A DNA stretch of 64,000 nucleotides from Bacteroidales bacterium (GCA_019429045.1 JAHYJL010000001.1:1588-65587); one strand, 5' to 3'; counted from the stretch's first letter, positions 1 to 35,703 are shown. Translations and numbers: made by a program. The notes: generated from the sequence alone by a model not told the origin.

Positions 1-595
1 GATATTTTACCGCATCTTCATCCGCCTGGTATTCATCGCTCCGGCTGAAAGCCAGGAAGGCAATGCCGGCAGCCAGATCGGCGGCAATTTCCGCAAGCTG
101 GTTGGGGTTCTGGCCCAGGACGATCGACAGTAAAATCTGCAGACCGTAAGCTTTGGTCAGTTGCTGCGTTGAATGGCGGCGGGCGGCATGTGACATCTCG
201 TGCCCCATCACCCCGGCAAATTCGGCTTCGTTATCGAGGAATTTGATCATGTCCGTAAAGAAATAAACGTATCCTCCCGGGGTGCAAAAGGCATTCATGA
301 TCGTATCGTTGATAATGAAAACCTCCCAGACAAACTCCTTGTCATATTTAACCAGGCCCGTGGCAAGGATGGAGTCCCTCACCCGTTCAATGTGACTGTA
401 TGCCTCCGGGTGCTGGTTTTTGTTTAAAACAGGGTACTTCGCCGGATCGCTCTGTATCATCTCTTTCATCTGTAATCCAAATGCCATGTCATCTTCCACA
501 GTGAAGAGATTAACCCCATTGTCGTCTTTACAGGCCGAAAAGAAAAGGATTGCCGGCAGGGCCAATGCCACCAGCAGCCTCATTGGTTTTCTCAT
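1..595 (-). CDS. M48-family zinc metallopeptidase (lipoprotein-like N-terminus); 3' end lies outside the window
   Basis: Minus-strand translation from the ATG at 595 reads MRKPMRLLVALALPAILFFSAC... and later ...FAGVMGHEMSHAARRH (HExxH). It is missing from the ORF track because it runs off the edge. The listed 200..427 + ORF is its antisense shadow. Confidence 0.8.
   Translation of the reverse strand, partial: MRKPMRLLVALALPAILFFSACKDDNGVNLFTVEDDMAFGLQMKEMIQSDPAKYPVLNKNQHPEAYSHIERVRDSILATGLVKYDKEFVWEVFIINDTIMNAFCTPGGYVYFFTDMIKFLDNEAEFAGVMGHEMSHAARRHSTQQLTKAYGLQILLSIVLGQNPNQLAEIAADLAAGIAFLAFSRSDEYQADEDAVKY
367..379. repeat. Copy of the iterated word (GGATGGAGTCCCT on + strand)
   Basis: Exact 13-mer core inside the M48 CDS, read as R-D-S-I on the coding strand. 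Confidence 0.9.
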
Positions 596-615
596 TATAA
601 TTATTTTTTACAAAG

Positions 616-1107
616 TTAAGAAATTATCACGCCAACACCAAATAACCAACACCCAATACCACTCATAACAGAAAGCTCATCAATATCCCCGCTGGCAGTG
701 GCGATCATGAATGAAACGGCACCCAGGACAATGGTCACGATATCGATCAGGGAGGTCTTTGCCGTATCGGCCTGCCTGCGCGTGACACCGCTTTCTTTCA
801 GGATATTCCCGAAGAACAGCATGCCCAGCAGGGGCATGGCTCCGATCCCCAGGAAGATCAACGGCGGATAAATCCCCCGTGTCACCCCCTGGTATAATAT
901 GTTCAATACGCTGCCATCCCGGTGCCGATGGGGATCAGCAGCAAAGGTTCATATTCATAGCGGATCGCCAGGAAAATAAAGACCAACCCAACGATGATCA
1001 GCCGTATTAAATATAGAAATCGTATCATCGGCAAATGAGAATGCCATTTGCAGGAGGGCCACCAGGGCCAGTATCCCAAAAAATGTAAGTGCTCTTTTCC
1101 GGGTCAT
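616..1107 (-). pseudogene. Relic of a Na+-translocating decarboxylase beta subunit (OadB/MmdB-like)
   Basis: Fragments in different frames: MTRKRALTFFGILALVALL..., then [28 protein letters not shown], then the 616..906 ORF ...[14 protein letters not shown]|[16 protein letters not shown].... The last junction looks like an internal deletion. About 490 bp remain where a gene of roughly 1.1-1.3 kb is expected. Confidence 0.6.
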
Positions 1108-1245
1108 CACTATCAGGCTATTTCCATCAGCATATCACCTTTCCCACGACCGTGATGATCAGCCCATCCTGGCCTTCACGCGGTGTTGAGCAACTCGCGT
1201 ATCTCCCGGTGGTAGTCGTGTATAAATCGCTCTTTCACCATGATG

Positions 1246-1656
1246 CTACTTGTTTTTATCCTCGCAGAACTCCGTCAGCACACCCAGTGTCGACTTGGGG
1301 TGCAGGAACGCGATGTGCAATCCTTCTGCCCCTTTGCGCGGCTGCCGGTCGATCAAGCGAATGCCTTTCGCCTCAGTCTCCTGCAGGCATTCTTCCAGGT
1401 TCTCCACGGCAAAAGCCAGGTGATGCACCCCTTCACCCCTATTGGTAATGAATTTGCCGATAGGGCCCTCCGGATCGGTCGACTCCAGTAATTCAATCTT
1501 GGTCTGCCCCACCTTAAAAAATGCCGTCTTTACTTTCTGGTCTTTTACTTCCTCGATGGCATAACATTTCAGCCCAAGGACATCTTCGTAAAAAGGAATG
1601 GCCTCTGCAAGATTTTGAACGGCAATTCCAATGTGCTCAATATGAGATATTTTCAT
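1246..1656 (-). CDS. mce: Methylmalonyl-CoA epimerase (VOC/glyoxalase fold)
   Basis: The 136 aa ORF (MKISHIEHIGIAVQNL...GVHHLAFAV...) has the typical size and motifs of the epimerase family. Confidence 0.75.
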   Translation of the reverse strand: MKISHIEHIGIAVQNLAEAIPFYEDVLGLKCYAIEEVKDQKVKTAFFKVGQTKIELLESTDPEGPIGKFITNRGEGVHHLAFAVENLEECLQETEAKGIRLIDRQPRKGAEGLHIAFLHPKSTLGVLTEFCEDKNK

Positions 1657-1745
1657 AATAATTCTTTTATTGTGAAATTTTTCACAAAAGTAATAAATAT
1701 GATAGAAACTGCAATAAAAGGCCTGAATTTATTATGAGAAAGGAT

Positions 1746-1982
1746 TTATTCCGAAAGGATGAGCACCTTGTTATTCAATACCTCGACAATTCCCCCCTTG
1801 ATCTCGATATACTGCAGTTGGTCTTTATCGTCGCGAAGCTTCACCCGGCCTTTTTTGAGCACGGCGATCATCGGGGCATGATTCCAGAGGACTGCGAACA
1901 AACCGTCGACACCCGGCATTTGCACCATGCTTACCTTGCCGGTATACAACGTCTGGTCAGGAGTGATGATTTCGAGCGTCAT
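1746..1982 (-). CDS. atpC: F0F1 ATP synthase subunit epsilon (short Bacteroidota form)
   Basis: 78 aa ORF immediately downstream of atpD, beginning MTLEIITPDQTLYTGKV..MVQMPGVDG. Confidence 0.85.
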   Translation of the reverse strand: MTLEIITPDQTLYTGKVSMVQMPGVDGLFAVLWNHAPMIAVLKKGRVKLRDDKDQLQYIEIKGGIVEVLNNKVLILSE

Positions 1983-1989
1983 GGAAGGT

Positions 1990-2051
1990 GTTTCTTGTTT
2001 CTTGTTTCTTGTTTCTTGTTTCGGGACCGCTGACCGCCGACCGCCGACCGC

Positions 2052-2052
<1 letters not shown>
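1990..2052. repeat. Two abutting heptamer arrays: (GTTTCTT)~4.7 at 1990..2022 and (ACCGCYG)~3.9 at 2026..2052
   Basis: Read directly from the sequence. Together they fill the atpD-atpC spacer up to the atpD stop codon. Confidence 0.9.
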
Positions 2053-4521
<2,469 letters not shown>

Positions 4522-6424: not shown

Positions 6425-7423
6425 ATGCAAAAGATCAGGGCCGCCATTACCGGGATTCATTGCTGGGTGCCGGATTTTGTATTGACAAACGAAGAATTGG
6501 AGAAGATCGTCGATACAAATGACGAGTGGATTATGACCCGCACGGGCATAAAGGAAAGACGGATCATGCGGGAGCCGGGCAAAGGCACCTCCGATATCGG
6601 CGCCCCGGCCGTCACAGGCCTGCTGGAAAAAACCGGCACAAAGCCAGAGGAGGTTGAACTGCTCATCTGCGCCACAGTCACCCCCGATTATGCATTCCCG
6701 GCCACTGCCAATGTGATCAGCGATAAGTGCGGGCTGAAAAACGCCTGGAGCTTTGATATCAATGCAGCCTGTTCGGGATTTGTCTTTGCCCTGGAAACAG
6801 GAAGGAAATTCATCGAGTCGGGTCAATATAAAAAAGTCATCATCGTCGGTGCGGAAAAGATGTCGATGATGGTCGATTACACCGACCGGGCTACATGTGT
6901 GCTTTTCGGCGACGCCGCCGGCGCTATCATGCTGGAGCCAACCACAGAAGAGGTTGGGGTGATGGACTCCATCCTGAAAACTGACGGCTCAGGCAGGCAA
7001 TACCTTCAACAGAAAGGCGGCGGGGCAGTCAAGCCTGCATCCCAGGAAACCATCGATTTCAGGGAACATTACATATACCAGGAAGGGCAGGCGGTTTTTA
7101 AATTCGCTGTGGTGGGCATGGCCGATGTCTCCGTGGAGATCATGAAAAGAAACAACCTGACAGCCGACGATATCGCTTACCTGGTCCCACACCAGGCCAA
7201 TCTGCGCATCATTGACGCTACCGCCAAAAGGATGGGCCTGCAGAAAGAGAAAGTCATGATCAATATCGAAAGATACGGGAATACTACCTCCGCCACGATC
7301 CCGCTCTGTATCTGGGAATGGGAAAAACAGCTTAAAAAAGGCGATAACCTGATCCTCTCTGCCTTTGGCGGCGGATTTACCTGGGGAGCCATTTGGGTAA
7401 AATGGGCCTACGATCCCAAATAA
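6425..7423 (+). CDS. fabH: 3-oxoacyl-ACP synthase III
   Basis: 332 aa ORF with active-site context NAACSGF and the ...HQAN...GNTS... motifs. Confidence 0.95.
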
Positions 7424-7872
7424 GCACACGCATCATCCGGTTCAGGAATGTCCGGGAACCACGAATGGCCGAAAAGGCGCTCGCCATCCGGCATGAGGTG
7501 TTTGTGAAAGGCCAGAATGTCGATCCGGCCCTCGAATACGAGCATGAAGATGATGCCCATCACTACCTGCTCCTTCTTGATGAAAAACCGGCGGCCACCG
7601 CCCGCTGGCGGGAAACGGAAAGCGGGATCAAACTGGAAAGGTTTGCCACACTGGAAGAATACCGTAACAAGGGATTTGGCGCTGCACTGCTGAAAGAAAT
7701 CCTGAAAGATATCATCCCGCTAAAAAAGAAAATTTACCTTCATTCCCAGCTCACCGCAGTTAAATTTTATGAAAAATACGGGTTTGTCAAAGAGGGAGAG
7801 ATCTTTTTCGAGGCAAACATCGGGCACTACAAAATGATTTTTGCTTCCGGTTCATCCGTGCCATCGCAGTAA
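7393..7872 (+). CDS. GNAT family N-acetyltransferase (start uncertain)
   Basis: 159 aa ORF with ...[10 protein letters not shown]... (acetyl-CoA binding motif A). It overlaps the fabH end by 31 nt, so the true start may lie further downstream. Confidence 0.7.
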
Positions 7873-7890
7873 TGGCAATGCGTATGCAAG

Positions 7891-9153
7891 TTAAACAGGG
7901 ACTCCATCCCAAACCAGTTTATACAATTTATCAGACAAGCGGAGAAAAGTGCCGACCGGTATGGTGATCAGATCCCCCTGTCCGGCAGAGTCAACTTGAC
8001 GATCATCTTTCCAGATTTCTCTCACCTTATCCTCCACAACCCCTGTGGTGGGTCCAAGGATAAGGATATCATCCCCCACGGCAACCGGATGGGCCTCCAC
8101 TTTGATCTCCGCAACGCAGGCTTTGGCGTAGTAATTCATGATCTTTCCCACATACACTTTCCTCCGGGTAGCTTTGGAGCCATGCTGATCGGACCATTCG
8201 CCGGTTTTTCGCCCGAGGTAGTAGCCGTCCCAGAAGCCGCGGTTGTAAACAGTTTCGAGTTTCGAGTTCCAGGTTTCGAGTTTCTCTTTTGTAAACGTCT
8301 CTTCCAGAACTGCCTGGACTGCTTCGTGGTAAACACGGGTGACGGTTTTAACGTATTCGGGTGACCTGCCGCGGCCTTCGATTTTGAGTATCCTCACCCC
8401 CGCATCCAGGATCTGATCAAGGAAGTCGATAGTCTTGAGATCTTTGGGCGACATGATGTATTCATTATCGATGACCAGTTCCACCTCCCCGTCCCGGTCG
8501 AACACCCGGTAAGGGCGGCGGCAGAGCTGCAGGCAGGCGCCGCGATTGGCCGAAGAATTCATATTGTCGAGGCTCAGGTAGCATTTCCCGGATACGGCCA
8601 TGCAGAGGGCGCCGTGGATAAAGACTTCGATCCTTACCAACCGGCCTGAAGGGCCCTTTATCTGCTCGTTTTCAATAGCTTCCGTGATCGCCTTCACCTG
8701 GCGCAACTCCAGCTCACGGGCTGTTACCATCACATCTGCATAGCGGGAAAAGTAGCGGACCGCCTCGATGTTGGTGATGTTCGCCTGGGTGGAGATATGC
8801 ACTTCCATGCCAGCCTGGTTCGCATACTGAATAACGGCATGATCGGAAGCGATGATGGCATCGATGCCTGCCTCTTTTGCCGCATCGGTTATCCGGCGCA
8901 TCATTTCCAGCTCCTCATCGAAAATAACGGTGTTCAATGTAAGATATGTCCGGATACCCTTTTCCCGGCAGATAGATGAGATAGTATGCAGGTTCTCCAG
9001 GGTGAAATTGATAGTCGACCTGGAGCGCATGTTCAGGTGCCCCACCCCGAAATAGACCGAACCGGCCCCTCCCTGGATCGCCGCCGTCAGGGATTCAAAG
9101 GAACCTACCGGTGACATGATTTCAATATCTTTGGAAATCGGCATATTATACAT
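7891..9153 (-). CDS. Peptidase U32 family protein
   Basis: 420 aa ORF carrying the U32 signature region EVFIHGALCMAVSGKCYLS. Confidence 0.85.
   Translation of the reverse strand: MYNMPISKDIEIMSPVGSFESLTAAIQGGAGSVYFGVGHLNMRSRSTINFTLENLHTISSICREKGIRTYLTLNTVIFDEELEMMRRITDAAKEAGIDAIIASDHAVIQYANQAGMEVHISTQANITNIEAVRYFSRYADVMVTARELELRQVKAITEAIENEQIKGPSGRLVRIEVFIHGALCMAVSGKCYLSLDNMNSSANRGACLQLCRRPYRVFDRDGEVELVIDNEYIMSPKDLKTIDFLDQILDAGVRILKIEGRGRSPEYVKTVTRVYHEAVQAVLEETFTKEKLETWNSKLETVYNRGFWDGYYLGRKTGEWSDQHGSKATRRKVYVGKIMNYYAKACVAEIKVEAHPVAVGDDILILGPTTGVVEDKVREIWKDDRQVDSAGQGDLITIPVGTFLRLSDKLYKLVWDGVPV
7896..7910. repeat. Copy of the iterated word (CAGGGACTCCATCCC)
   Basis: Forms the last codons of the U32 peptidase (...W-D-G-V-P-V-stop on the minus strand). 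Confidence 0.9.
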
Positions 9154-9312: not shown

Positions 9313-10779
9313 ATGATTAACAGAAAATATTTCCTCCGCATTTTATGGATCACAATCTGGATTCTAGCCGCGCACATCAACATTCTGGCAAATACCTATT
9401 ATGAGGGTGAACCGAAGAACGTTAAATATGTGTTTTTATTTATCGGCGACGGCATGGGCCATGCACAGGTCAGCACCACGGAAGCATACCTGGCAGCGCT
9501 TAAAGGCAATACCGGATTCGAGCCGCTCAATTTTTCCGGCTTTCCACACATAGGTCAAAGCACCACATATGCCAACAACCGGTTGATCACCGGTTCCGCA
9601 GCGGCCGGTACAGCGCTGGCCACAGGTAAAAAAACCAATATCAACCGTATCTCTATGGACCCGGCAGCAACGGTTCCTTACGAAACCATAGCGGAAAAAG
9701 CGAAAAAGCAAGGCTTTAAGGTTGGCATTGTGACCAGCGTCTCGATCGACCATGCCACCCCGGCTGTTTTTTATGCCCACCAACCCGACCGCGATATGTA
9801 TTTTGAAATAGGCATTGATTTGATAAACAGCGGATTTGATTATTTTGCCGGGGGTGGTTTCCTGATCCCCGACGGCATGTGGAACGATCAGGAGGTGAAC
9901 CTGACCACCCTGGCGGCTGAAAAAGGTTACGCTGTGGTCAATTCCGCAGAAGCCTTCCGGAACCTGAAACCTGGCAACGGAAAATCACTGGTTCTATCAC
10001 CCAGGACAGCGGGCGGGGCCTCGCTGCCTTATGCCATCGACACCCATCCCGGCGACCTGACACTGGCCGATTTTACGGCAAAGGGGATTGAGATGCTTTC
10101 AGGAGATGAAGGCTTTTTCATGATGATTGAAGGGGGGAAGATCGACTGGCTGGGCCATGCCAACGATGCGGCTTCTTTGGTTCGCGAGATGATCGCTTTT
10201 AGCGAAGCTGTGGACAAAGCATTGGATTTTTATCACGAATACCCTGAAAACACGCTGATCATTGTCACTTCAGACCATGAAACGGGTGGACTGTCGCTCG
10301 GCCATGTCGCCACGAAATATGAAACCAATGTGGAATTGTTAAAGTACCAGCGCTCATCGGTGGAAGAGCTGAACAAGATCGTCGCCCATTTCCGGGTAAA
10401 CCAGTCGGGTGATTCTGAAGAAGATTTTAACCGCATGCTGCGGGCGCTGGAATTCGACCTGGGCCTGCACAACAGGAAGTACGGGACCCTGCTGGATGAT
10501 GAGGAAATGGCTGTCCTCAAAGAACTTTTCATGACGACCGTTATGGGTATCGGAACCGAAAAAGGGTCGTATGGGTACTCCGAACCTTTCATGGCCAAAG
10601 CCATCGAGATCATGAACAAGAAAGCGGGCATTGCCTGGGGAACAGGTTCGCATACCGGCGTCAATGTCCCGGTTTACGCCATCGGAACAGGTGCAGAACG
10701 ATTTACCGGGGTGATAGATAATACGGATATTCCGAAGATTATCGGGGAGCTAATGGGAGTTCTGAGTTCTGAGTTCTGA
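9313..10779 (+). CDS. Alkaline phosphatase (PhoA family), secreted
   Basis: 488 aa ORF with a signal-like N-terminus and the motifs FIGDGMG, ...DHATPA... and ...TSDHETGG.... Confidence 0.9.
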   Translation: MINRKYFLRILWITIWILAAHINILANTYYEGEPKNVKYVFLFIGDGMGHAQVSTTEAYLAALKGNTGFEPLNFSGFPHIGQSTTYANNRLITGSAAAGTALATGKKTNINRISMDPAATVPYETIAEKAKKQGFKVGIVTSVSIDHATPAVFYAHQPDRDMYFEIGIDLINSGFDYFAGGGFLIPDGMWNDQEVNLTTLAAEKGYAVVNSAEAFRNLKPGNGKSLVLSPRTAGGASLPYAIDTHPGDLTLADFTAKGIEMLSGDEGFFMMIEGGKIDWLGHANDAASLVREMIAFSEAVDKALDFYHEYPENTLIIVTSDHETGGLSLGHVATKYETNVELLKYQRSSVEELNKIVAHFRVNQSGDSEEDFNRMLRALEFDLGLHNRKYGTLLDDEEMAVLKELFMTTVMGIGTEKGSYGYSEPFMAKAIEIMNKKAGIAWGTGSHTGVNVPVYAIGTGAERFTGVIDNTDIPKIIGELMGVLSSEF

Positions 10780-10874
10780 GTTCTGAGTTCTGAGTTCTGA
10801 GTTCTGAGTTCTGAGTTCTGAGTTTTGAGTTCTGAGTTCTGAGTTCTGAGTTCTGAGTTTTGAGTTTTGAGTTA
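10757..10874. repeat. (GAGTTCT/GAGTTTT) heptamer array, about 17 units
   Basis: Read directly. It begins 21 nt before the phosphatase stop codon and encodes ...VLSSEF-stop. Confidence 0.95.
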
Positions 10875-10886
10875 CGGATTTAATCT

Positions 10887-10930
10887 TACAGTCCTACAGT
10901 CCTACCGTCCTACAGTCCTACCGTCCTAAC
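10887..10930. repeat. (TACMGTCC) octamer array, about 5 units
   Basis: Read directly. It overlaps the aspS 3' end, where the minus strand reads ...R-T-V-G-L-stop. Confidence 0.9.
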
Positions 10931-12702: not shown

Positions 12703-12737
12703 GTCGGCGGTCGGCGGTCGGCGGTCAGCGGTCGGCA
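12703..12737. repeat. (GTCGGCG) heptamer array, 5 units
   Basis: Read directly. The unit is the reverse complement (cyclic permutation) of the array at 2026..2052. It overlaps the stop of the 12725..13438 gene (...F-A-D-R-stop). Confidence 0.9.
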
Positions 12738-13438
12738 AATAGTATGCCTCCCACATCGGTCAGCGGTCCTTCATCCAGTTCAACGATTTTATAACCAAGT
12801 GATACCAGATATTCCTTGATTTGTCCGCTATCCGGATGATGGGAAAGACTACCGTTGATAAAGACGGTGTTTTCAAGCACTCCGCAGCAGCCGCCGAAGA
12901 AGCCGTGGGGGAAGCCTTCGAGTTTGATTTTGTGGGAGTTGACGAACAGAGAACAGGGATGGAGTCCGCCAGCTGGCGGATGGAGTCCCTGTAAAACCTT
13001 ATGAATCCCCGGATCACTGGTTATAAAATGCCCGTCTTTCAGCGGCAGCAAATTACACCGGCAATAGCCCTGGTCAACATGCACCGGGGTAAGATCTTCC
13101 AGGGTCCGTGTGATGGTAAAATCAGTATGGCGGAAATTATGGATGAGATACTTATCCATCGCAACGGCGTTATACCGGGAGGTGGCAGGGTATTCACCGC
13201 CTACCGGCAATTCGCCGGTAATGTACCTGATCTTGTGATCATCAAGTAATTTAAAGTACTTCTCCGGAAGGTTCGGCGCTGCAAAAAGATGGCCGGGCGA
13301 CTGGCAGAAGAAGATATCAGGATGCCCGGAAATGGCTGAATAAGTGATGCCCTGCGTCTGAAGCTCCATCAGTTCGCCGAACCGGGACAGCTTTTTCTTC
13401 GTACCTGAAGAAATCTTATGATTAATAATGATCAACAC
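12725..13438 (-). CDS. Conserved hypothetical protein (possibly DUF6873-like; family name recalled, not verified)
   Basis: The 237 aa ORF has a codon-usage-consistent frame and lies tail-to-head with the radical SAM gene. I cannot confirm any functional motif. Confidence 0.45.
   Translation of the reverse strand: MLIIINHKISSGTKKKLSRFGELMELQTQGITYSAISGHPDIFFCQSPGHLFAAPNLPEKYFKLLDDHKIRYITGELPVGGEYPATSRYNAVAMDKYLIHNFRHTDFTITRTLEDLTPVHVDQGYCRCNLLPLKDGHFITSDPGIHKVLQGLHPPAGGLHPCSLFVNSHKIKLEGFPHGFFGGCCGVLENTVFINGSLSHHPDSGQIKEYLVSLGYKIVELDEGPLTDVGGILFADR
12954..12991. repeat. Split or double copy of the iterated word around the palindrome GCCAGCTGGC
   Basis: CAGGGATGGAGTCC-GCCAGCTGGC-GGATGGAGTCCCTG on the + strand. 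It is translated on the minus strand as Q-G-L-H-P-P-A-G-G-L-H-P-C. Confidence 0.9.
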
Positions 13439-13446: not shown

Positions 13447-13478
13447 AACACTTGAACACCCGAACACTTGAACACTCT
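13447..13478. repeat. (AACACYYG) octamer array, 4 units
   Basis: AACACTTG AACACCCG AACACTTG AACACTCT, ending at the radical SAM stop codon. Confidence 0.85.
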
Positions 13479-14488
13479 TAGAAGTACTCAACCCAAAATT
13501 CATTCGCTTTCAACTTCAAATCTTTCCCAAACCTGACCTCCCTGAAATGCTTCAGCAGCCTTTTCCGGTTCCTGCCGTAATATCCGACCGCATAGTTATA
13601 TTGGGATGGATGAACCGAAATCAGGATCACTTCGCCCTCCTCTCTTTGCCCTATGCCCTTCAGCCGGTCCCACCATACTTCGGTCATGGCCAGCTCCCGG
13701 AAAGATTCATGGCACGGGCCTGCCAGCAGCTCTTCACCGCGCAGGAGCCTGGTGGCGCCGTGCAGCCCGACACGGGTCACCTCCACCCCGGCCTCCTCAA
13801 ACAGCGGCAAAAGTTGTTTGACCCACCGGACAGCCTCATCCAGCGACAATGGCTTGTATTTCCCCTTTTCATACCATTCAGCCAGCGTTGTCCCTTTTAT
13901 CACCAACACCGGGTAGATCCGGGTTTCACTGGCCCCCAGCTCTATGATTCTACGCGCCGTGAAGAGCGATTTCTCCAGGGTGTCGCCGGGCAGACCGACC
14001 ATCATCTGCAATCCCAGCCGGAAGCCATGGTTGACAATCATCTGAGATGACATCTCAACATCCTGGGCCGTATGCCCCCGTACCGATTGTATCAATACCT
14101 CTTCATCCATCGACTGTGCGCCGAGCTCAATGGTGGTTACACCGAATTTTTTCAAGGGATGGAGTCCCTGTTCACTGATATAGTCCGGACGGGTAGAAAG
14201 CCTGATGCCCTTCACCTTACCGCTTTCCAGGAAAGAATTGGCCACCCGCAGGTAGCTCTCCTGTTCATCCAGCGGCAGCCCTGTGAAATTCCCTCCGAAA
14301 AAACCGATCTCAATATGATGCTTCCCCCTGGGATACGAAGCAAGATATTCTTCAATCAGGCATCGTACTTCTTCTGCATCGGGAATCTTTTTCCTGTTTG
14401 TGATCTTCCGTTGGTTACAAAAAACACATTGAAACGGGCATCCGAGTTCGGGGACGAAGACAGGTATGGTGTAATGTACAACCATCAT
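13478..14488 (-). CDS. Radical SAM protein (ELP3/MiaB/NifB-type core without an acetyltransferase domain)
   Basis: 336 aa ORF with the CPFQCVFCNQ (CxxxCxxC) cluster near the N-terminus. Confidence 0.8.
   Translation of the reverse strand: MMVVHYTIPVFVPELGCPFQCVFCNQRKITNRKKIPDAEEVRCLIEEYLASYPRGKHHIEIGFFGGNFTGLPLDEQESYLRVANSFLESGKVKGIRLSTRPDYISEQGLHPLKKFGVTTIELGAQSMDEEVLIQSVRGHTAQDVEMSSQMIVNHGFRLGLQMMVGLPGDTLEKSLFTARRIIELGASETRIYPVLVIKGTTLAEWYEKGKYKPLSLDEAVRWVKQLLPLFEEAGVEVTRVGLHGATRLLRGEELLAGPCHESFRELAMTEVWWDRLKGIGQREEGEVILISVHPSQYNYAVGYYGRNRKRLLKHFREVRFGKDLKLKANEFWVEYF
14155..14170. repeat. Copy of the iterated word (AGGGATGGAGTCCCTG)
   Basis: Inside the radical SAM CDS, read as E-Q-G-L-H-P-L. 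Confidence 0.9.
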
Positions 14489-15306: not shown

Positions 15307-16191
15307 ATGCAACGCGAAATCATCAAAATAGACGAAGAAAAATGCAACGGCTGCGGGTTATGCATCCCGGCATGCCCGGAAGGGGCGCTGCAGATCATCG
15401 ATGGGAAGGCGCGGCTGGTATCGGACCTGATGTGCGACGGCCTGGGGGCCTGTATCGGCGAATGTCCGGAAGGGGCCATTGAGATAGAACTTCGCGAAGC
15501 GGAGCCCTATAACGAAAAGGCGGTTATCAAAGAGATTGTCAAATTCGGCGAAAATACCGTAATCGCCCACCTGAAGCACCTGCTGGATCATAATGAAATG
15601 AAGTATTTCGGGGATGCGATGGAGTATCTCGAAAAGCATCATGGTGAACTTACTTTCGATCTTGAAGATACACTTGAAAAGGTATATGGAGAAGGGATCA
15701 ATGGCGGAGGTTGTGCCGTGGGAGGCTGTCCGGGGGTGAAAAGTTTTGATTTCATCATAAAAACGGATGAGAGGGATGGAGTCCCTGTTGAGATTCCTGC
15801 CGAAATTCCTTCTGAACTGCGCCAGTGGCCGGTACAGATGCATCTCATCAACCCGGTCGCACCCTATTTCCGTACCGCCGAGGTGGTGCTGGCCGCCGAC
15901 TGTGTCGCTTTCTCCATCGGCAACTTCCACCAGAAGTTTCTCAGGGGCCGCAGCCTGGCGATCGCCTGCCCGAAGCTGGACCAGGGCAAAGAGGTGTACG
16001 TGGAAAAGCTAAAAACGATGATCGACGAAGCTCAGATCAGTAGTTTGAACGTGATCGTAATGGAAGTGCCGTGTTGCAGCGGCCTGGTTCACATCGCAGG
16101 GCTTGCAAGAGAGGCGGCGGAGAGAAAAGTCCCGCTGAAAAAGACAGTCGTGAGCATTAAAGGGGAAGTGCTGTTCGAGGATTTTATCTGA
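15307..16191 (+). CDS. 4Fe-4S dicluster domain protein
   Basis: MQREIIKIDEEKCNGCGLCIPACPEGAL... plus CDGLGACIGECP. The ATG at 15307 is preferred over the track start at 15217. Confidence 0.75.
   Translation: MQREIIKIDEEKCNGCGLCIPACPEGALQIIDGKARLVSDLMCDGLGACIGECPEGAIEIELREAEPYNEKAVIKEIVKFGENTVIAHLKHLLDHNEMKYFGDAMEYLEKHHGELTFDLEDTLEKVYGEGINGGGCAVGGCPGVKSFDFIIKTDERDGVPVEIPAEIPSELRQWPVQMHLINPVAPYFRTAEVVLAADCVAFSIGNFHQKFLRGRSLAIACPKLDQGKEVYVEKLKTMIDEAQISSLNVIVMEVPCCSGLVHIAGLAREAAERKVPLKKTVVSIKGEVLFEDFI
15772..15787. repeat. Copy of the iterated word (AGGGATGGAGTCCCTG)
   Basis: Inside the 4Fe-4S protein CDS, read as R-D-G-V-P-V. Confidence 0.9.
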
Positions 16192-16207: not shown

Positions 16208-16254
16208 ATTCACCACAGATTTCTCAGATTTACACAGATTTATCACAGATAATT
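16208..16254 (+). repeat. CACAGAT-word element, copy 1
   Basis: TTCACCACAGATTTCTCAGATTTACACAGATTTATCACAGATAA, starting 17 nt after the stop of the preceding + gene. The first 22 nt are identical to the copy at 38106. Confidence 0.9.
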
Positions 16255-16260
16255 AAGCAT

Positions 16261-16292
16261 AAATTCAACATTCAAAATTCAAAATTTAAAAC
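16261..16292. repeat. (AAATTCA/AAAATTC) A/T-rich heptamer-like array
   Basis: AAATTCAACATTCAAAATTCAAAATTTAAAAC, read directly. Confidence 0.7.
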
Positions 16293-16634: not shown

Positions 16635-17870
16635 ATGAGCGAACTGATCAACAACTCCGAAAAGCGCAAGGAGCTGCTCAAGCATATGATCCTGCAGCTT
16701 CATGCCGGCGAAGCGCCGGCTGAAGCGCGCAAGCAACTGGTTAACCTGCTGCAGAAAATCCCCTACGGCGAAGTGGTGGAGGTGGAGCAGGAGCTGATCT
16801 CCGAAGGGACCCTCAGCGAGGCTGAAGTGCTGCAATTTTGCGATATCCACAGCGAAGCGCTGGACGGCCATATCGACCTGTCGGGAATGAAAATCGTGCC
16901 CCCGGGGCACCCTGTCGATACCTTCAAAAGGGAAAACAAGGAACTCCTGAAAGTGGTCGATCAACTCGAAGAGCTTTATAAAAAGGGAGCCTCCCTGAAG
17001 GATGAAACGGATATCTCACCCTGGTTCCTGGAGATGAAAACCCTGTTCAACAGCCTGATGGATGTGGAAAAACATTATCTCCGCAAGGAAAACCTGGTAT
17101 TCCCCTACCTGGAGAAATACGGCATCACAGGCCCTCCCAAGGTAATGTGGGGCAAGCATAACGAGATCAGGGAATTGCTGAAAGCAGCCATCGAGGTACT
17201 GAACAACCCGGAGGGACTCCATCCCGAAGAGGCCACCGCCGCCGTGCAGCTAATCCTGAAACCGGCATCCGACGGTGTGGCAGATATGACCATGAAAGAA
17301 GACCAGATCCTGCTACCGATGGTGATGGATAAACTATCGGATATGGAATGGTACGAGATATACCGCCAGACGCTGGAGATCGGTTTTTGCCTGTACGACC
17401 CCGATATTGAATGGAAGCCGGAAAATATCGATGAATCGCAGTTGGAAGTATCCGACAGCGACCTCATCCAGCTTCCTTCCGGCAGCTTCACCAAAGCCGA
17501 ACTGCAGGCTATCCTGAACACCCTTCCGGTGGATATGACATTTGTCGATAAAGACGAGAAAGTCAGGTACTTCAGCCAGGGGAAAGAGCGGATTTTCCAT
17601 CGCAGCCGGGCGATCCTGAACCGGGATGTCAAGCTGTGCCATCCGCCGTCGAGCGTGCATGTGGTGGAACAGATCCTGGATGACTTCAAGAGCAGCCGGC
17701 AGGATCATGCCCCCTTCTGGATCCAGATGAAGGGGAAGTTCATCCACATCGAATACTTTGCCCTCAGGGATGAAAACGGCAATTACCTCGGCACCCTCGA
17801 AGTCTCGCAGGACCTCACCGGCCACCGCGCCTTGGAAGGCGAACAACGGATACTTTCCTATTCGAAATAA
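16635..17870 (+). CDS. DUF438 family protein (hemerythrin-like plus PAS-like domains)
   Basis: 411 aa ORF with the architecture typical of NO/nitrite-responsive clusters. Confidence 0.7.
   Translation: MSELINNSEKRKELLKHMILQLHAGEAPAEARKQLVNLLQKIPYGEVVEVEQELISEGTLSEAEVLQFCDIHSEALDGHIDLSGMKIVPPGHPVDTFKRENKELLKVVDQLEELYKKGASLKDETDISPWFLEMKTLFNSLMDVEKHYLRKENLVFPYLEKYGITGPPKVMWGKHNEIRELLKAAIEVLNNPEGLHPEEATAAVQLILKPASDGVADMTMKEDQILLPMVMDKLSDMEWYEIYRQTLEIGFCLYDPDIEWKPENIDESQLEVSDSDLIQLPSGSFTKAELQAILNTLPVDMTFVDKDEKVRYFSQGKERIFHRSRAILNRDVKLCHPPSSVHVVEQILDDFKSSRQDHAPFWIQMKGKFIHIEYFALRDENGNYLGTLEVSQDLTGHRALEGEQRILSYSK
17212..17225. repeat. Copy of the iterated word (AGGGACTCCATCCC)
   Basis: Inside the DUF438 CDS, read as P-E-G-L-H-P-E. 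Confidence 0.9.
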
Positions 17871-17962
17871 AACATTCGAAACACAAAACACGAAACACGA
17901 AACACAAAACACGAAACACAAAACACGAAACACGAAACACAAAACACGAAACACGAAACACT
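17871..17962. repeat. (AACACGA/AACACAA) heptamer array, about 13 units
   Basis: Fills the whole spacer from the DUF438 stop codon to the GTG of the next gene. Confidence 0.95.
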
Positions 17963-18529: not shown

Positions 18530-19150
18530 ATGATCAGGAAAATCGTTCATTCTTATGCCCCACCCCCGCAATGGTACCTGCCGGTGATCATTGTACTGGG
18601 GGTTTTTGTCGGTGTGGCGGTAATGATTTTCAGGACTTCCCGGGCCCACTCATACCTCTCGGACAAGCCGGAGACCTGCATGAACTGCCACATTATGGCT
18701 CCGCAGTATGCTACCTGGAGCCACAGTTCACATCGTGAAGTTGCTGTTTGCAACGATTGCCATGTACCCCAGGACAATTTCTTCCGGAAATACTATTTCA
18801 AAGCGATGGATGGCATGCGGCATGCCACTATATTTACCCTCAGGCTTGAACCGCAGGTAATCTTTATCAAAAAAGCCGGTGTAGGTGTCGTGCAGGAAAA
18901 CTGTGTGCGATGTCACAATGAGTTGATCCGGGATGCGAAATTGATGTCGCTGGTCCATCATCTGGATCATGAGCGCACCGACCGGCTTTGCTGGGATTGT
19001 CACCGGGAGGTCCCCCACGGAAGGGTCAACAGCATCTCAAGCGTCCCCAATGCCCGCGTGCCGCTTCCCTCGAGCGCCGTGCCGGATTGGATGAAAGTCA
19101 GCCGGCAGCCGGCAGTCAGCAGTCGGCAAAGTTCAAACATTATGCATTAA
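18530..19150 (+). CDS. nrfH: Cytochrome c nitrite reductase small subunit NrfH (NapC/NirT family)
   Basis: N-terminal TM segment and four CxxCH motifs (CMNCH, CNDCH, CVRCH, CWDCH). The C-terminal tail is encoded by repeat arrays. Confidence 0.9.
   Translation: MIRKIVHSYAPPPQWYLPVIIVLGVFVGVAVMIFRTSRAHSYLSDKPETCMNCHIMAPQYATWSHSSHREVAVCNDCHVPQDNFFRKYYFKAMDGMRHATIFTLRLEPQVIFIKKAGVGVVQENCVRCHNELIRDAKLMSLVHHLDHERTDRLCWDCHREVPHGRVNSISSVPNARVPLPSSAVPDWMKVSRQPAVSSRQSSNIMH
19097..19131. repeat. (GGCAGYC-like) heptamer array, 5 units
   Basis: GTCAGCC GGCAGCC GGCAGTC AGCAGTC GGCAAAG, lying inside the nrfH 3' end. Confidence 0.8.
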
Positions 19151-19211
19151 ACATTATGCATTATGCATTATGCATTATGCATTATGCATTATTAATTAAA
19201 CATTAAACATT
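19135..19211. repeat. (CATTATG) and (AAACATT) heptamer arrays
   Basis: AAACATTATGCATTAAACATTATGCATTATGCATTATGCATTATGCATTATGCATTATTAATTAAACATTAAACATT. The array contains the nrfH stop codon and ends 7 nt before the nrfA ATG. Confidence 0.9.
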
Positions 19212-30695: not shown

Positions 30696-30884
30696 AAGAA
30701 TTATATTTGTAACTACCTGCTTCCGGGTCTTGACTTTTTTTATAAATTAATTACCTTTGATCTGATTTTGTGATTAAAAAAATTCTGGTCAGCCCAAAGT
30801 CTTAATTTTCATAATATCAACAATATATATTTTTGTCGCATATGTATGAAGCATTCTTTTTAACCACTAAACCAAGTGAATCAT

Positions 30885-33380
30885 ATGAAAAATTTTGTTA
30901 CTAAACAGTTAATTTTTCTGATTTTCCTGTCAGGCTTGTTTGGGTCATCACTAGCCCAGGAATTCCTTCCCGCCCTGAATGACAATTACATGGGCATTAA
31001 CCAGGCTACTTTGCAGCCCGGAGCTATCGCCGACAGCCGATTTAAGATAGATGTTAATTTTTTCGGCTTTAATAGTGATATATACAATAATATGATCCGC
31101 TTCAAATCAGCCGGACTGGTCAATCCATACAAAATATTTACCGAGGATGACTGGTGGGATGAAAACAGCTACCTGGCCGATCCGGACGGTAAAGATAAAA
31201 GCGCCATATTCAACCAGACACTGCTGGGATTATCCTTTCTTGTTACCATCGACCAGAAACAAGCGGTGGGTTTCACTTTCCGGACACGAAACATCATAAA
31301 TGTTGATGATGTCAGCGAGCCCCTGGCCAGGTCTATTTACGGTGACTTCAAATATTCCGAGTATTGGCAGAAGTGGTATTACGATGAAAACCTGCGGGCA
31401 GTCAACCACATCTTCACCGATTATGGTCTGACATATGCCAGGGAGGTGTTTGACCTCGGGGTTAATTATCTGAAGGCCGGTCTTACGGTGAAACTGCTGC
31501 AGGGGATTGGCGGGGCTTATGTGCAGGCAGATGACTTCTATTACTATTTCTATAACCAGAATAACAATCCCGAAGATGCCGACTATATGTCCTGGAATTC
31601 CCCCTATGTCAATTCCGGTGTTTCCGACAACTGGAACTGGGGATCGAACGAAAACAGCAAGTATGAAAGTGATTTCATGTATGCGTTTACAGCGAAACCT
31701 TCCGTCGGGCTCGACCTGGGGGTTGTCTATGAATTCCGGCCAAAGTATAAGAATTACCGGTATGATATGGACGGAGAGACCAACCTGATAAGAAAGGATC
31801 AGAACAAATACATGCTGAAAGTAGGTGTATCTGTCCTGGATATCGGACGATTGAGGTATGAAAAAGCCTATAGCAGCCAGGATTTTACCGCAGGTTTTAC
31901 CCCAGATTACCTGCAGCGTTATCAGAGCAGCAACAATGCCGTGCCGGGAAGCACCCACTGGATGGACATCGAGGAGGTGAACTTTGGCTTTCCACCTTAC
32001 GTGAACTTTGCCGATACGGTATACCGCAGGATACAACTTGACCAGGGTATTACCAAGGGAAATGAAAACAAGGAAGACTTCACCATCAAACTGCCGACGG
32101 CTTTCAGCCTGCAGGTCGACTTAAACATTTTCCAGGGGCTATACCTCAACCTGACCACTTTTACGGCACTTAACCAGGGTTTTTCCAAAGCGGGAAATTC
32201 GCATTATATCTCCAATTACAGCCTCACCCCGAGGTATGAGCACAAGTGGTTCGGCGCCATGCTGCCCATGTATTTCAACCAGTACCAGAAATTTAACATG
32301 GGGATCGGGCTGCGCGCCGCCTTCGTCTATTTCGGGATCAATAACCTGTTCACGGGATTATTCGATGATCCTTACGGCTCAAGTATTTACCTGGGTGTCA
32401 AGATTCCCATCTGGTATAGTAAACCCCCGAAAGATCTTGATAATGATGGCGTTTCGGATAAGCTTGACAATTGTCCGACCGTTCCCGGGCCGTGGGAGTT
32501 CAGGGGATGCCCCGACAGGGATGGGGATGGAGTCCCGGATCATGAAGATGAATGTCCAGATATTCCGGGGCTGAAGGAATTCAAGGGCTGTCCCGACAGG
32601 GATGGGGATGGCATCCCTGACAAGGATGACCTGTGTCCCGATGAACCAGGGCCCAAGACAACCCAGGGCTGTCCCGACAGGGATGGGGATGGAGTCCCGG
32701 ATTACCTGGACGAATGTCCCGACGATCCAGGCCCTGCCAGCCTGAATGGCTGTCCCGACAGGGATGGGGATGGTGTCCCGGACCATAAGGACCTTTGCCC
32801 GGATGTGGCCGGTAAAATAGAATACGGCGGCTGTCCGTTCCTTGACACAGACGGTGATGGGGTGAGAGATGAAGATGATATGTGCCCGACCATACCTGGC
32901 CCTGCCGAAAACAGGGGCTGCCCATGGCCCGACACCGACGGGGACGGCATTCCCGATCACCTCGATAAGTGCCCCCTGACCCCCGGCCCGCCGGAAAATA
33001 ACGGCTGCCCGATCATCGAGGAAAAAGAACAGGAAATCATTAAAACTGCCTTTGAAAACCTCGAATTTGAAACCGGCAAGGCGGTGATCCGTTCCTCTTC
33101 ATTTGCATCGCTCAACGAACTGGCTACCTTGCTGATCAGCAAACCCACGTGGAAAATACAGATCTCCGGGCATACCGATAGTGTGGGTAGCGATGAAGCC
33201 AACATGAAGCTTTCCAAAGACCGTTCACAATCGACGGCGAAATACCTGGAAGGCCGGGGCGTTGCACCCAGCCGGCTGATCACCGAATGGTTCGGCGAAA
33301 CCAGACCGATAGCCGACAATGACACGCCTGAAGGCCGCCAGAAGAATAGAAGGGTGGAAATGCAGATCGTGTTTGAATAA
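30885..33380 (+). CDS. OmpA-family outer-membrane protein with thrombospondin type-3 Ca-binding repeats
   Basis: Signal peptide and barrel-like N-terminal half. About 8 repeats of the CPDRDGDGVPDxxDxCP type, followed by a C-terminal OmpA domain (...HTDSVGS...NRRVE...). Confidence 0.85.
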   Translation: MKNFVTKQLIFLIFLSGLFGSSLAQEFLPALNDNYMGINQATLQPGAIADSRFKIDVNFFGFNSDIYNNMIRFKSAGLVNPYKIFTEDDWWDENSYLADPDGKDKSAIFNQTLLGLSFLVTIDQKQAVGFTFRTRNIINVDDVSEPLARSIYGDFKYSEYWQKWYYDENLRAVNHIFTDYGLTYAREVFDLGVNYLKAGLTVKLLQGIGGAYVQADDFYYYFYNQNNNPEDADYMSWNSPYVNSGVSDNWNWGSNENSKYESDFMYAFTAKPSVGLDLGVVYEFRPKYKNYRYDMDGETNLIRKDQNKYMLKVGVSVLDIGRLRYEKAYSSQDFTAGFTPDYLQRYQSSNNAVPGSTHWMDIEEVNFGFPPYVNFADTVYRRIQLDQGITKGNENKEDFTIKLPTAFSLQVDLNIFQGLYLNLTTFTALNQGFSKAGNSHYISNYSLTPRYEHKWFGAMLPMYFNQYQKFNMGIGLRAAFVYFGINNLFTGLFDDPYGSSIYLGVKIPIWYSKPPKDLDNDGVSDKLDNCPTVPGPWEFRGCPDRDGDGVPDHEDECPDIPGLKEFKGCPDRDGDGIPDKDDLCPDEPGPKTTQGCPDRDGDGVPDYLDECPDDPGPASLNGCPDRDGDGVPDHKDLCPDVAGKIEYGGCPFLDTDGDGVRDEDDMCPTIPGPAENRGCPWPDTDGDGIPDHLDKCPLTPGPPENNGCPIIEEKEQEIIKTAFENLEFETGKAVIRSSSFASLNELATLLISKPTWKIQISGHTDSVGSDEANMKLSKDRSQSTAKYLEGRGVAPSRLITEWFGETRPIADNDTPEGRQKNRRVEMQIVFE

Positions 33381-33407
33381 TTTATTTCTAACAGCTTGAT
33401 ATTCAAT

Positions 33408-33446: not shown

Positions 33447-33447
33447 T

Positions 33448-33455
33448 TACCTTTG
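33448..33455 (+). promoter_or_regulatory. Candidate -7 box (TACCTTTG)
   Basis: TAnnTTTG match upstream of the MltF-like gene. Confidence 0.3.
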
Positions 33456-33560
33456 CAGCCCTGTACAATAATAACAGTACAGGTGAGTTAATACAGCCAT
33501 GAATGTAACAAATACTCGTTTAATTACGTAAAAGGCTGATGTTGAACGAAAAATGATTAA

Positions 33561-35036
33561 ATGAAGGTATTAAAATTCAAATTCATACCGATCCCGATAC
33601 TACCCAACCTCTTTTTCCTGATCCTTACTACACTCTTCTTAACCTCCTGCCTCGACAGTCACCGGGATAAACTCAACCGGGCCCTTGCGGATGATGGTTC
33701 AGTGAAGCGCTGTCGAATCCAGGAGATCCAGGAAAGAGGAAGACTGGTTGCCATAACGGATATGAACACTACCGATTATTTCGTATTCCGTGGCGAACCG
33801 ATGGGTTACCAGTTTGAGAAACTAAAGATGTTCGCCGATTTCCTGGGCGTAGATCTTGAAATCAAGCTCAGCAACAACCTGGATGAAGCTTTCCGCAAGC
33901 TGGACAAAGGCGATGCCGACCTTATTGCCATGGGTATAACGATAACCCTCAACGGTCCGGATTTTGTTGAATTCACCGACCCCATCATGCAAACCCGGCA
34001 AATGCTGGTGCAGCGCAAACCAGATAACTGGCGGAAAATGAGGAGCTGGGACGAGATCGAAAATGCCCTGGTCAGGAATCCGATCGACCTGGCAGGTAAA
34101 ACTGTCCATGTCCCCAAAAATTCCCCCTTTGCCAGCCGGCTGAAAAACCTGTCAGAGGAGATCGGTCAGCCGGTTGATATCAGGGAAGAGCGGGACCGGA
34201 AAACAGAACAACTGGTGGAGGCCGTTGCCAACGGAGAACTCGGTTATACGGTCTGCAATGAACATACTGCGCTGCTTTTTGAAAGGATGTACCCCGAACT
34301 GGATATCCGGACAGCCATCAGTTTCCCGCAAAACCTGGCCTGGGCCGTCAGGGAGGATTCCGACAGCCTCCGGGTAACCATCAACCAGTGGCTCCGGGAA
34401 TTCAACCAGAGCGCTGCCTCCAGGTTCCTGATAGAGAAGTACTTTAATTCCACGCGAATGGCTTTTATGGCCAGAAGCGAATATGCTTCCTATAACCAGG
34501 GCAAAATATCGGCGTATGATGAACTATTGAGAAATATGTCGAGAAAATACAATCTCGACTGGCGGCTGGTAGCCTCGCTGATCTACCAGGAATCGCAATT
34601 CAATCCCGATGCCAGGTCGTGGAAAGGGGCGTTTGGCCTGATGCAAATGATGCCCGCCACAGCAGCCATTTTTGGAATTGACACGAACTCGACCGCGACG
34701 GAACAACTCGAAGCCGGTATCCGTTATATCAAGGCCCTGGATCGGGAATTACCCGCGGAGATCAAAAATCCCAATGAAAGGATCAAGTTCATCCTGGCTT
34801 CTTATAATGTCGGTATCGCCCACGTTTACGACGCCCGCAGGCTGGCTGAGAAAAACGGCCATGATCCGAATGTCTGGTCAGGGAATGTCGATTTTTATAT
34901 CCTGAACAAATCAAACCCGGCTTATTACAGGGATTCGGTGGTGCGTTACGGCTACGCGCGCGGTGAAGAAACCTACAACTTCGTGATCGAGATCCTCGCT
35001 CGGTTTGAGCATTACAAGAACGTTATCAATGATTGA
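33561..35036 (+). CDS. MltF-like lytic transglycosylase (solute-binding domain plus SLT domain)
   Basis: 491 aa ORF with SLT motif ...YQESQFNPDARSWKGAFGLMQMMP.... Confidence 0.85.
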   Translation: MKVLKFKFIPIPILPNLFFLILTTLFLTSCLDSHRDKLNRALADDGSVKRCRIQEIQERGRLVAITDMNTTDYFVFRGEPMGYQFEKLKMFADFLGVDLEIKLSNNLDEAFRKLDKGDADLIAMGITITLNGPDFVEFTDPIMQTRQMLVQRKPDNWRKMRSWDEIENALVRNPIDLAGKTVHVPKNSPFASRLKNLSEEIGQPVDIREERDRKTEQLVEAVANGELGYTVCNEHTALLFERMYPELDIRTAISFPQNLAWAVREDSDSLRVTINQWLREFNQSAASRFLIEKYFNSTRMAFMARSEYASYNQGKISAYDELLRNMSRKYNLDWRLVASLIYQESQFNPDARSWKGAFGLMQMMPATAAIFGIDTNSTATEQLEAGIRYIKALDRELPAEIKNPNERIKFILASYNVGIAHVYDARRLAEKNGHDPNVWSGNVDFYILNKSNPAYYRDSVVRYGYARGEETYNFVIEILARFEHYKNVIND

Positions 35037-35037
35037 A

Positions 35038-35117
35038 GATTTACAGTTTACGATTTACAATCTAAAATCTGACTTTAAGAATTAAAATTCAAGATTTTAG
35101 ATCGTAAACTGTAAATC
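35038..35117. terminator. Long bipartite hairpin spanning the convergent spacer
   Basis: GATTTACAGTTTACGAT (35038..35054) is the perfect reverse complement of 35101..35117. A second pairing joins ATCTAAAATC (35060..35069) to 35093..35102. The structure runs from stop codon to stop codon. Confidence 0.45.
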
Positions 35118-35642
35118 CTAGATCATCTCAAATTCCGCTTTTATCTGTTTCACCCATTTCTCAACCCGTTCATCGGTCAGTTCTTTCTGATAGTCAAGGT
35201 CGAGGGCGAGACCGTAGAACATATCGTTTTCCACTGATTCAGACTCCTGGAAATCATAGCCTTCCGTCGGCCACCAGCCTTTGTGCACGGCCCCCTGCTT
35301 TTCAAACATCTCCTTCAGAAAGGTCATCCCATCGACAAAATGATTCGGGTAAAGCACCTGGTCGCCCAGTCCGAACAAGGCAAAGGGCTTGCCTTCTAAC
35401 TCCGCTTTTTCAATCTTGGCAAAGAAACCGGTCCAGCGCGTCTTATGCGCCTGTCCCCAGCTATCGGCGCCGGTGGTGCTCCCGCCGATGATGAAAGCAT
35501 CGTACAGCGCGAACTCCGCCGTGTTGATCTCCGTAATGGTGAAAATATCGATGATATCTTTATCAAACTTCGAATAGATCTTATACGCAGCCTCTTCCGT
35601 ATTGCCTTTCTTAGGCCAGTAAACCAAAGCGATTTTTTTCAT
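35118..35642 (-). CDS. fldA: Flavodoxin (long-chain)
   Basis: 174 aa ORF beginning MKKIALVYWPKKGNTE.... Confidence 0.85.
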   Translation of the reverse strand: MKKIALVYWPKKGNTEEAAYKIYSKFDKDIIDIFTITEINTAEFALYDAFIIGGSTTGADSWGQAHKTRWTGFFAKIEKAELEGKPFALFGLGDQVLYPNHFVDGMTFLKEMFEKQGAVHKGWWPTEGYDFQESESVENDMFYGLALDLDYQKELTDERVEKWVKQIKAEFEMI

Positions 35643-35686
35643 GGGATTGGTGTTTTAAGAATGCAAAGTTAGGAAAAAGATGCGAA

Positions 35687-35703
35687 CAGGGACTCCATCC
35701 CCT
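35687..35703. repeat. Intergenic copy of the iterated word (CAGGGACTCCATCCCCT)
   Basis: Lies between the flavodoxin start and the stop of the epimerase gene. Confidence 0.9.

Follow-up and report, generated by a model that had tools for sequence, protein, structure and literature searches.

We examined a short hairpin-forming word that is dispersed over a 64,000-nt stretch of a Bacteroidales bacterium (GCA_019429045.1, JAHYJL010000001.1:1588-65587; the whole stretch is called the window). The word is most probably a repetitive extragenic palindromic (REP) sequence that is cognate to a REP-associated tyrosine transposase (RAYT) of a clade of uncultured Bacteroidales and that has multiplied in the window's lineage.

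The word in the window and in related genomes

Nine exact occurrences of the core GGGACTCCATCC were counted in the window, against 0.02 expected from dinucleotide-preserving shuffles (0 of 100 reached nine), and the over-representation put forward by the original prediction was thus borne out. In a k-mer census, the 17-mer AACAGGGACTCCATCCC with its four matches (7894, 14154, 15771 and 35685) was the sole dispersed long word; other long words were confined to one local tandem array each. Seven loci belong to the repeat family (Table 1), which corresponds to about one per 9 kb in 64 kb; AGGGACTCCATCC is common to all seven, and the consensus of the solo copies is aACAGGGACTCCATCCCtt. No copy was found anywhere in 36-64 kb of the window. 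The loci listed by the original prediction were right, and the positions given for them were 1-3 nt off because the starts of longer forms had been taken; the list had left out the exact matches at 32525 and 32687, both in thrombospondin type 3 (TSP3) repeats, and a second 11-nt match at 11026 in the AspRS gene. The proposed hairpin CAGGGA-CTCCA-TCCCTG was found in full at one place only, where it makes up the outer arms of the composite at 12953-12992; the solo copies keep a stem of 4-5 bp.

When the 17-mer was scanned against one genome per species (185,579 species), 91 stretches were obtained, which is about the chance expectation. Twelve of the 91 came from a single metagenome-assembled genome, 'Bacteroidales bacterium CWP5-1.bin.50' (JAWOHY01, hereafter JAWOHY), several of whose stretches share the gene order of the window and are 85-89% identical to it in DNA. 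The other stretches were single matches, several of them being one conserved gene in related species, with the exception of the Bacteroidales contig L084 (L numbers are our labels for contigs), which had several copies. In JAWOHY the word formed tandem arrays with a period of 21-22 nt, such as ACAGGGACTCCATCCCTCTCC, and inverted doublets were present too. A scan of metagenomes for tandem dimers gave 33 contigs, which total 184 kb and contain 190 cores; most of these were from one population (Ga0114946 and Ga0209498, mutually 99-100% identical), in which one extra locus per 4.4-5.5 kb was found after the triggering array had been discounted. The search of related genomes that had been proposed with the original prediction thus revealed a word that fills the genomes and metagenome contigs of related uncultured Bacteroidales.

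The period was 21 in 43 of 55 arrays, including 29 of the 34 arrays within long open reading frames (ORFs), and arrays of up to 22 copies were observed. The unit consists of a conserved asymmetric core of 13-17 nt and a variable linker of 4-6 nt, which differs from array to array, and the consensus of its 5' flank is aACA. In its full form (AACAGGGACTCCATCCCTGTT) it carries the 13-nt hairpin core GGGA-CTCCA-TCCC with the conserved 5' (A)ACA, and a G-for-A variant (GGGACTCCGTCCC) gives a perfect hairpin. Folding of the 21-mer (-7.2 to -8.1 kcal/mol, z -3.8 to -4.7) indicated a hairpin, and the unit is a short imperfect palindrome.

Several other identities were considered for the word. In L084, from a third Bacteroidales genome (CAZSDK01), an array with a 61-nt period at 7355-7595 is composed of the inverted REP doublet CAGGGACTCCATCCCCTGAGGGGGATTGAGTCCCTG and a constant 25-nt spacer; clustered regularly interspaced short palindromic repeats (CRISPR) were rejected, as the 'spacers' of this array are identical. 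Sites of the parS type, iterons and type IIS restriction sites were also rejected. The Rfam scan of the whole window matched no family, and literature on the word itself returned eukaryotic primer matches only. The scan of viral contigs gave one match and hence no link to phages, and when the heptads of the six frames were concatenated and used to search proteins, one weak match was obtained, a poor yield for which low complexity is probably to blame. Furthermore, a higher-order tandem repeat of 187-208 nt with two or three REP copies per unit was observed in L130 (4743-7282) and L022 (438-811); that of L130 has about 13 units near the RAYT genes and yields a string of small spurious ORFs.

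The RAYT gene and the copies beside it

Subclasses 2.4 and 2.6 of TnpA_REP, the RAYT class, are reported from Bacteroidetes, flanked by secondary structures (PMC6006769). Following this lead, the collected contigs were scanned for the pattern HuH...YIxxNP, and one ORF was obtained, in L107 and its duplicate L120. This ORF (L107:5024-5668, minus strand) matched the NCBIfam model REP_Tyr_transpos ('REP-associated tyrosine transposase') with E=8.9e-15 and 54.8 bits, and the whole profile of Pfam Y1_Tnp with E=4.7e-4 and 20.7 bits. Its homologues number 1480, many of them named RayT by the Joint Genome Institute. A single-sequence search of the PDB gave noise only; a profile built from 32 homologues matched a single entry, 4ER8 (E. 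coli TnpArep), with E=1.4e-6 and with the HuH and YIxxNP motifs aligned. The protein, an HUH/Y1 transposase, is 200-215 aa long among the relatives, and H61, H63 and Y126 are invariant. Its HuH motif is NHFH and its tyrosine motif YIHKNP, an exact fit to neither published subclass signature. Besides L107/L120, the gene was found in L130 (two copies), in L131-L134 and at the end of the JAWOHY contig L072. A Pfam search of 10 JAWOHY ORFs from genes next to arrays and of 30 further ORFs of the window gave ordinary genes and no transposase.

In L107 the word flanks the RAYT gene; the upstream copies are mostly forward, and those at the 3' end and downstream are mostly reverse. Relative to the gene, upstream units (mostly forward) stand near -176/-155/-134 and -66/-45, and downstream units (mostly reverse) near +6/+27; this scheme is complete in L131, shows small gaps and shifts in L132-L134 and is comparable in L107 and L130. 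No unit found in the 6.7-20.6 kb of L131-L134 is more than 180 nt away from the RAYT gene. L130, which shares its assembly with L092, the closest relative that the window has, carries two RAYT copies and, in 20.6 kb, 85 units, and L072 ends within the RAYT gene (C-terminus), adjoining a 22-nt array. Doublets of opposite orientation at 21-nt spacing were seen beside RAYT and at some loci; direct arrays predominate.

The gene order Methyltransf_24 / RAYT / gyrB-like / YjeF / TrmA-like is kept, and the RAYT orthologues of L131-L134 are 59-75% identical to that of L107. Three variants of the hairpin stem track this divergence: GGGA/TCCC in L107, L130 and L131, GAGA/TCTC in L132 and L133, and GGGA/TCTC, with a G.T pair, in L134. 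The more distant orthologues are thus accompanied by a compensated GAGA...TCTC stem.

Copies in coding sequence and their turnover

About 65% of the loci are coding (71 of 109 overall, and six of the seven in the window, with hosts confirmed by Pfam), so that the family is not mainly extragenic. Pooled over the window and the related contigs, the 71 coding loci use all six frames, 37 of them sense and 34 antisense. The unit is stop-free in all six frames, and the peptides read from them are GLHP/GLRP, DSIP, GTPS, DGVP, MES/TES and WSP. Array hosts confirmed by Pfam are unrelated to one another: a FolC-like Mur ligase, TsaB, PBP1, a phosphorylase of the glycoside hydrolase (GH) 94 type, GH35, amylases, a GH18/CUB secreted protein, an Eco57I-type methylase and DUF6873. 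In the window, the hosts named by the original prediction were confirmed by Pfam (U32 peptidase, DUF6873, radical SAM, 4Fe-4S and DUF438/hemerythrin/PAS) or, for the M48 peptidase, by the HEMSH motif seen in translation, and the frames were as claimed, with GLHP four times (12957, 12978, 14157, 17213), DGVP twice (7898, 15774) and RDSI once (367).

The comparison of orthologues that had been proposed gave the following for the DUF438 and radical SAM proteins. Among DUF438 homologues the copy site is a hypervariable loop, and the distant ones are without the peptide. Distant radical SAM homologues lack it as well; no insertion was found at this site in more than 100 homologues, and three had 1, 2 or 6 extra GLHPSxQ heptads exactly there. 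Together with the six frames and the unrelated hosts, this sustains the earlier view of an element that acts at the DNA level and is not a protein motif. Our best guess for the solo copies without change of length is conversion of sites that already resembled the repeat. It was also observed that many radical SAM homologues have RLHLL or GLHLL in place of GLHPL of the window, and that L093 at 10313 has the DNA GAGACTCCATCTC (AAGAGACTCCATCTC) at this site, which is the GAGA...TCTC variant found beside RAYT in L132/L133; the site holds either a native near-match or a REP copy of long standing that has followed the variant of its lineage.

Copy number differs between close relatives. At the 4Fe-4S site one unit is present in the window, two in L128 and three in JAWOHY and L092. 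Site B of DUF6873 has two units in the window and one to seven in other genomes, and site A, which has no unit in the window (ATCACACGGACCCTGG, a near-match) or in L094, holds 2-4 units in five other contigs. The fill of site A includes 22 nt of the site-B flank in another reading frame, and the window's DUF6873 gene and L128's 4Fe-4S gene, different genes of two genomes, share the 38-nt composite GGGATGGAGTCCGCCAGCTGGCGGATGGAGTCCCTGT without a single difference. These comparisons show that sequence is copied from one locus to another and that copy number changes by slippage, 21 nt at a time. As a separate observation, half of DUF6873 in the window (12736-13081) is 70% identical to JAWOHY/L092, compared with 86-89% in the flanks, and resembles the more distant L094 allele; this suggests that recombination at a REP hot spot has replaced one allele by another.

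A REP copy also marks a deletion junction at which one gene end and one gene start were rebuilt. In outgroups, the U32 peptidase ends in KWVDSRKVMPQSE and a stop, followed by a terminator, about 100 nt and the start of a PHP gene (MNYFNFHTH). In the window and JAWOHY, the 17-nt word stands in place of this gene end, terminator, spacer and PHP start, and the copy at 7894..7912 lies exactly at the junction of a deletion of about 160 nt relative to the outgroups. The word supplies the terminal WDGVPV* (asterisk, stop) to the upstream gene and, in JAWOHY, also the ATG of the downstream PHP gene (MESLFNLHTH). In the window, 7780-7897 is a remnant with the first 18 or so codons of this PHP-family phosphatase gene, of which JAWOHY (L078 3437-4288) and the outgroups have an intact version; about 777 nt were lost from the window directly beside the REP copy.

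Mechanism, known systems and rival explanations

By analogy with E. coli TnpA_REP and with IS200/IS605, RAYT would bind the hairpin on single-stranded DNA and would cut and join beside it, seeding new copies; we infer both the catalysis and this route. Copies may then be gained or lost locally in 21-22-nt steps through replication slippage, and loci may swap sequence via ectopic conversion or template switching. In the window's lineage the family has reached a density of about one locus per 4-9 kb and has moved into coding sequence, where the survivors are stop-free copies with a length that is a multiple of three, placed at gene ends or in variable loops.

We further lean, with some reserve, to a REP/RAYT system that stands outside the 'extragenic' rule: a 21-nt module without stops in any of the six frames invades housekeeping enzymes, which thereby gain tracts of heptads, 7 to about 150 residues long and of different length in close relatives, and the multiplying unit would be the direct 21-nt repeat and not an inverted REP doublet (REPIN). 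If this is true, RAYT activity would be a source of protein-length variation, of deletion junctions and of new gene ends, as at U32/PHP. REPs have been defined and modelled as extragenic hitch-hikers, with their effect on proteins assumed to be nil; here, in-frame arrays lie within the FolC-like ligase, TsaB, PBP1, glycosidases and radical SAM enzymes. This lineage offers a natural test of RAYT target choice, both for the direct iteration of 21 nt and for sites with a prior likeness to the repeat, and it shows a repeat load that enzymes tolerate. In practical terms, the arrays create spurious ORFs and, as many contigs end in them, break short-read assemblies.

REP/RAYT systems are already known, Bacteroidetes RAYT subclasses included, and the departures here are the mainly coding residence, the direct 21-nt arrays, the ACA tag and the remodelling of gene ends. 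The original prediction had known of no such element in Bacteroidota; this has to be qualified, since TnpA_REP subclasses 2.4/2.6 with flanking secondary structures have been reported (PMC6006769); for this particular repeat, no description of it, its coding spread, its direct 21-nt arrays, its ACA tag or the remodelled gene ends was found in the literature. The family resembles the systems of E. coli (TnpA_REP, PDB 4ER8) and Pseudomonas (REPINs) in its short hairpin repeat and high copy number, in the single-copy syntenic HUH/Y1 gene flanked by inverted repeat copies and in the covariation of repeat and enzyme; as in TnpA_REP subclass 2.4 (PMC6006769), the repeat enters the transposase gene's own end. 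It differs in the share of coding loci, the direct arrays of 21-22 nt, the ACA tag and the core of 13-21 nt. PMC3733652 gives a conserved GTAG or CGTC tetranucleotide at one REP end; in our family the 5' flank reads aACA instead.

Other dispersed repeats were compared as well. Small dispersed repeats (SDRs) of Nostoc are reportedly 21-27 nt long with hairpin potential, and their mobility is said to have been inferred from filled and empty orthologous sites. They are alike in unit size, hairpin and a heptamer-array-rich genome; however, they belong to another phylum with an unrelated sequence, and our word is not nested in heptamer arrays and has an identified cognate RAYT. Rickettsia palindromic elements (RPEs) are 100-150 bp long, not tandemly iterated and known from Rickettsia only, and no cognate transposase is known for them. 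They share with the family the tolerance of selfish palindromic repeats in frame in unrelated coding genes, whereas the unit here is 17-21 nt.

A number of points weigh against a REP of a RAYT. Classical REPs are extragenic, carry the GTAG/CGTC tag and multiply as inverted doublets (REPINs), while 65% of the present loci are coding, the tag is ACA and direct arrays prevail. The mobilisation of REPs by RAYTs has been demonstrated only in part, model organisms included. Both profile scores are below their curated cut-offs (54.8 against 80 bits for REP_Tyr_transpos, 20.7 against 23 bits for Y1_Tnp). The window shows dispersed copies only, because no RAYT gene lies in it, and the presence of one in the source genome is deduced from relatives that are 85-89% identical in DNA. 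Contigs outside the window were retrieved by the word itself, so that their densities are biased upwards. Finally, some solo copies (radical SAM, DUF438) have the same length as homologues, and a conversion or point-mutational drive fits them better than insertion.

It could be argued that no dedicated enzyme is needed and that the word owes its spread solely to slippage during replication, to template switching at the hairpin and to ectopic gene conversion, with the RAYT gene as one more hot spot where copies gathered. The linker proper to each array fits local amplification, composite and flank were co-copied between loci, and solo copies without length change are found where the site already resembled the word. 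However, we consider such spread unlikely, since in four lineages the repeat is otherwise absent from 6.7-20.6 kb and all copies lie no more than 180 nt from RAYT with conserved spacings and orientations, since the stem co-varies with RAYT divergence, and since a 17-nt word at hundreds of unrelated loci would be hard to seed by RecA-type conversion alone. The original prediction had drawn a likeness to DNA uptake sequences (DUS) and to the highly iterated palindrome HIP1. A signal of this type, enriched by biased uptake in natural transformation and then by recombination, would account for coding copies without length change at poorly conserved positions, for lineage dialects (the A, G and GAGA variants) and for the DUF6873 segment exchanged for another allele (70% against 86-89% in its flanks); the DUS of Neisseria, the uptake signal sequences (USS) of Pasteurellaceae and HIP1 are likewise over-represented words with both orientations, coding copies and lineage dialects. 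But these occur at about one copy per kb and are not known to form tandem arrays or to be associated with a transposase, and HIP1 is a perfect palindrome of 8 nt, whereas the present word has an asymmetric conserved core of 13-17 nt, is no palindromic 8-mer, forms inverted doublets and 21-nt tandem arrays of variable copy number with up to 22 units, and occurs at one locus per 4-9 kb with none in 36-64 kb of the window. As uptake leaves no place for the tight, ordered flanking of a transposase gene either, the likeness found no support and an uptake signal is held to be very improbable.

We give just as little credence to an iteron-like binding site that is selected by the host for a DNA-binding protein. 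The asymmetric conserved core of 15-17 nt, the variable linker of 4-6 nt and the period of 21-22 bp, with 21 bp equal to two helical turns, would suit it; copies that lie in housekeeping genes at random, whatever the frame or orientation, the free shifts of copy number between close relatives and the lack of a link to promoters or a chromosomal domain speak against it. The least probable reading, with hardly any chance of being right for the family, is a protein motif or chance, i.e., a favoured peptide or codon usage. It does explain two of the nine exact matches, those in the TSP3 motif DGDGVPD, and the 11-nt match in AspRS at 11026 lies in a region taken to be the conserved SIRDVIAFP stretch. 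It was refuted for the seven non-TSP3 loci by the six frames, the intergenic copies, the absence of the peptide from distant homologues and the 0.02 matches in shuffles, and it holds for the two TSP3 copies only. Their host gave Pfam matches to TSP_3 (E=3.9e-24) and OmpA and contains TSP3 repeats, which bind calcium and have the pattern DxDxDGxxDxxD, with a period of 81 nt; 32495-32786 covers three and a half of these, with GGGATGGAGTCCC twice and near-matches twice. We read both matches as a codon-level coincidence with DGDGVPD, outside the family, and conversion by the REP family is conceivable there.

Loci of the window and its other repeats

Table 1. Family loci, unrelated exact matches and arrays of short units in the window (the core column gives the position and strand of exact GGGACTCCATCC)
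Position	Strand	Feature	Core	Context
366..380	-	solo copy GAGGGACTCCATCCT	367(-)	in M48-type peptidase coding sequence, read RDSIL; weak member, 5' ACA absent, last C replaced by T
7894..7912	+	solo copy AACAGGGACTCCATCCC	7898(+)	antisense in U32 peptidase, last residues and stop
12953..12992	-	composite dimer ACAGGGACTCCATCC-GCCAGCTGGC-GGACTCCATCCCTGT	12978(-)	in DUF6873 (QGLHPPAGGLHPC), hot spot B
14154..14172	-	solo copy	14157(-)	radical SAM coding sequence, read QGLHP
15771..15789	-	solo copy	15774(-)	4Fe-4S protein coding sequence, antisense RDGVP
17211..17225	+	solo copy GAGGGACTCCATCCC	17213(+)	DUF438/hemerythrin/PAS coding sequence, read EGLHP, hypervariable loop; one synonymous base different in L092 orthologue
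35685..35703	+	intergenic solo copy	35689(+)	between flavodoxin gene (35118-35642, -) and epimerase gene (35722-36732, -); kept at same place in JAWOHY (L083)
32525	-	exact match unrelated to family	32525(-)	OmpA-family protein 30876-33380
32687	-	exact match unrelated to family	32687(-)	OmpA-family protein 30876-33380
1989-2052		array of 7- or 8-nt units		
10757-10928		array of 7- or 8-nt units		
12703-12736		array of 7- or 8-nt units		
13447-13476		array of 7- or 8-nt units		
16214-16291		array of 7- or 8-nt units		
17877-17961		array of 7- or 8-nt units		
19099-19211		array of 7- or 8-nt units		
38111-38224		array of 7- or 8-nt units		
40398-40428		array of 7- or 8-nt units		
42514-42573		array of 7- or 8-nt units		
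53379-53409		array of 7- or 8-nt units		
54015-54103		array of 7- or 8-nt units		

Apart from the REP family, tandem arrays of 7- or 8-nt units with up to 16.7 copies were observed in many intergenic regions of the window. The unit AGAACTC was found at three separate loci (10757, 38155 and 42514), and relatives have arrays at matching places with other lengths or units. These arrays recall the short tandemly repeated repetitive (STRR) heptamers of cyanobacteria and the TAACTGA repeats that have been reported in some Bacteroidetes (PMC4679880). The part of the window from 44000 to 64000 has a lower G+C content (38-44% in places) and carries three cargo proteins of the type IX secretion system (T9SS) and an Eco57I-type restriction-modification methylase (62582-63970).

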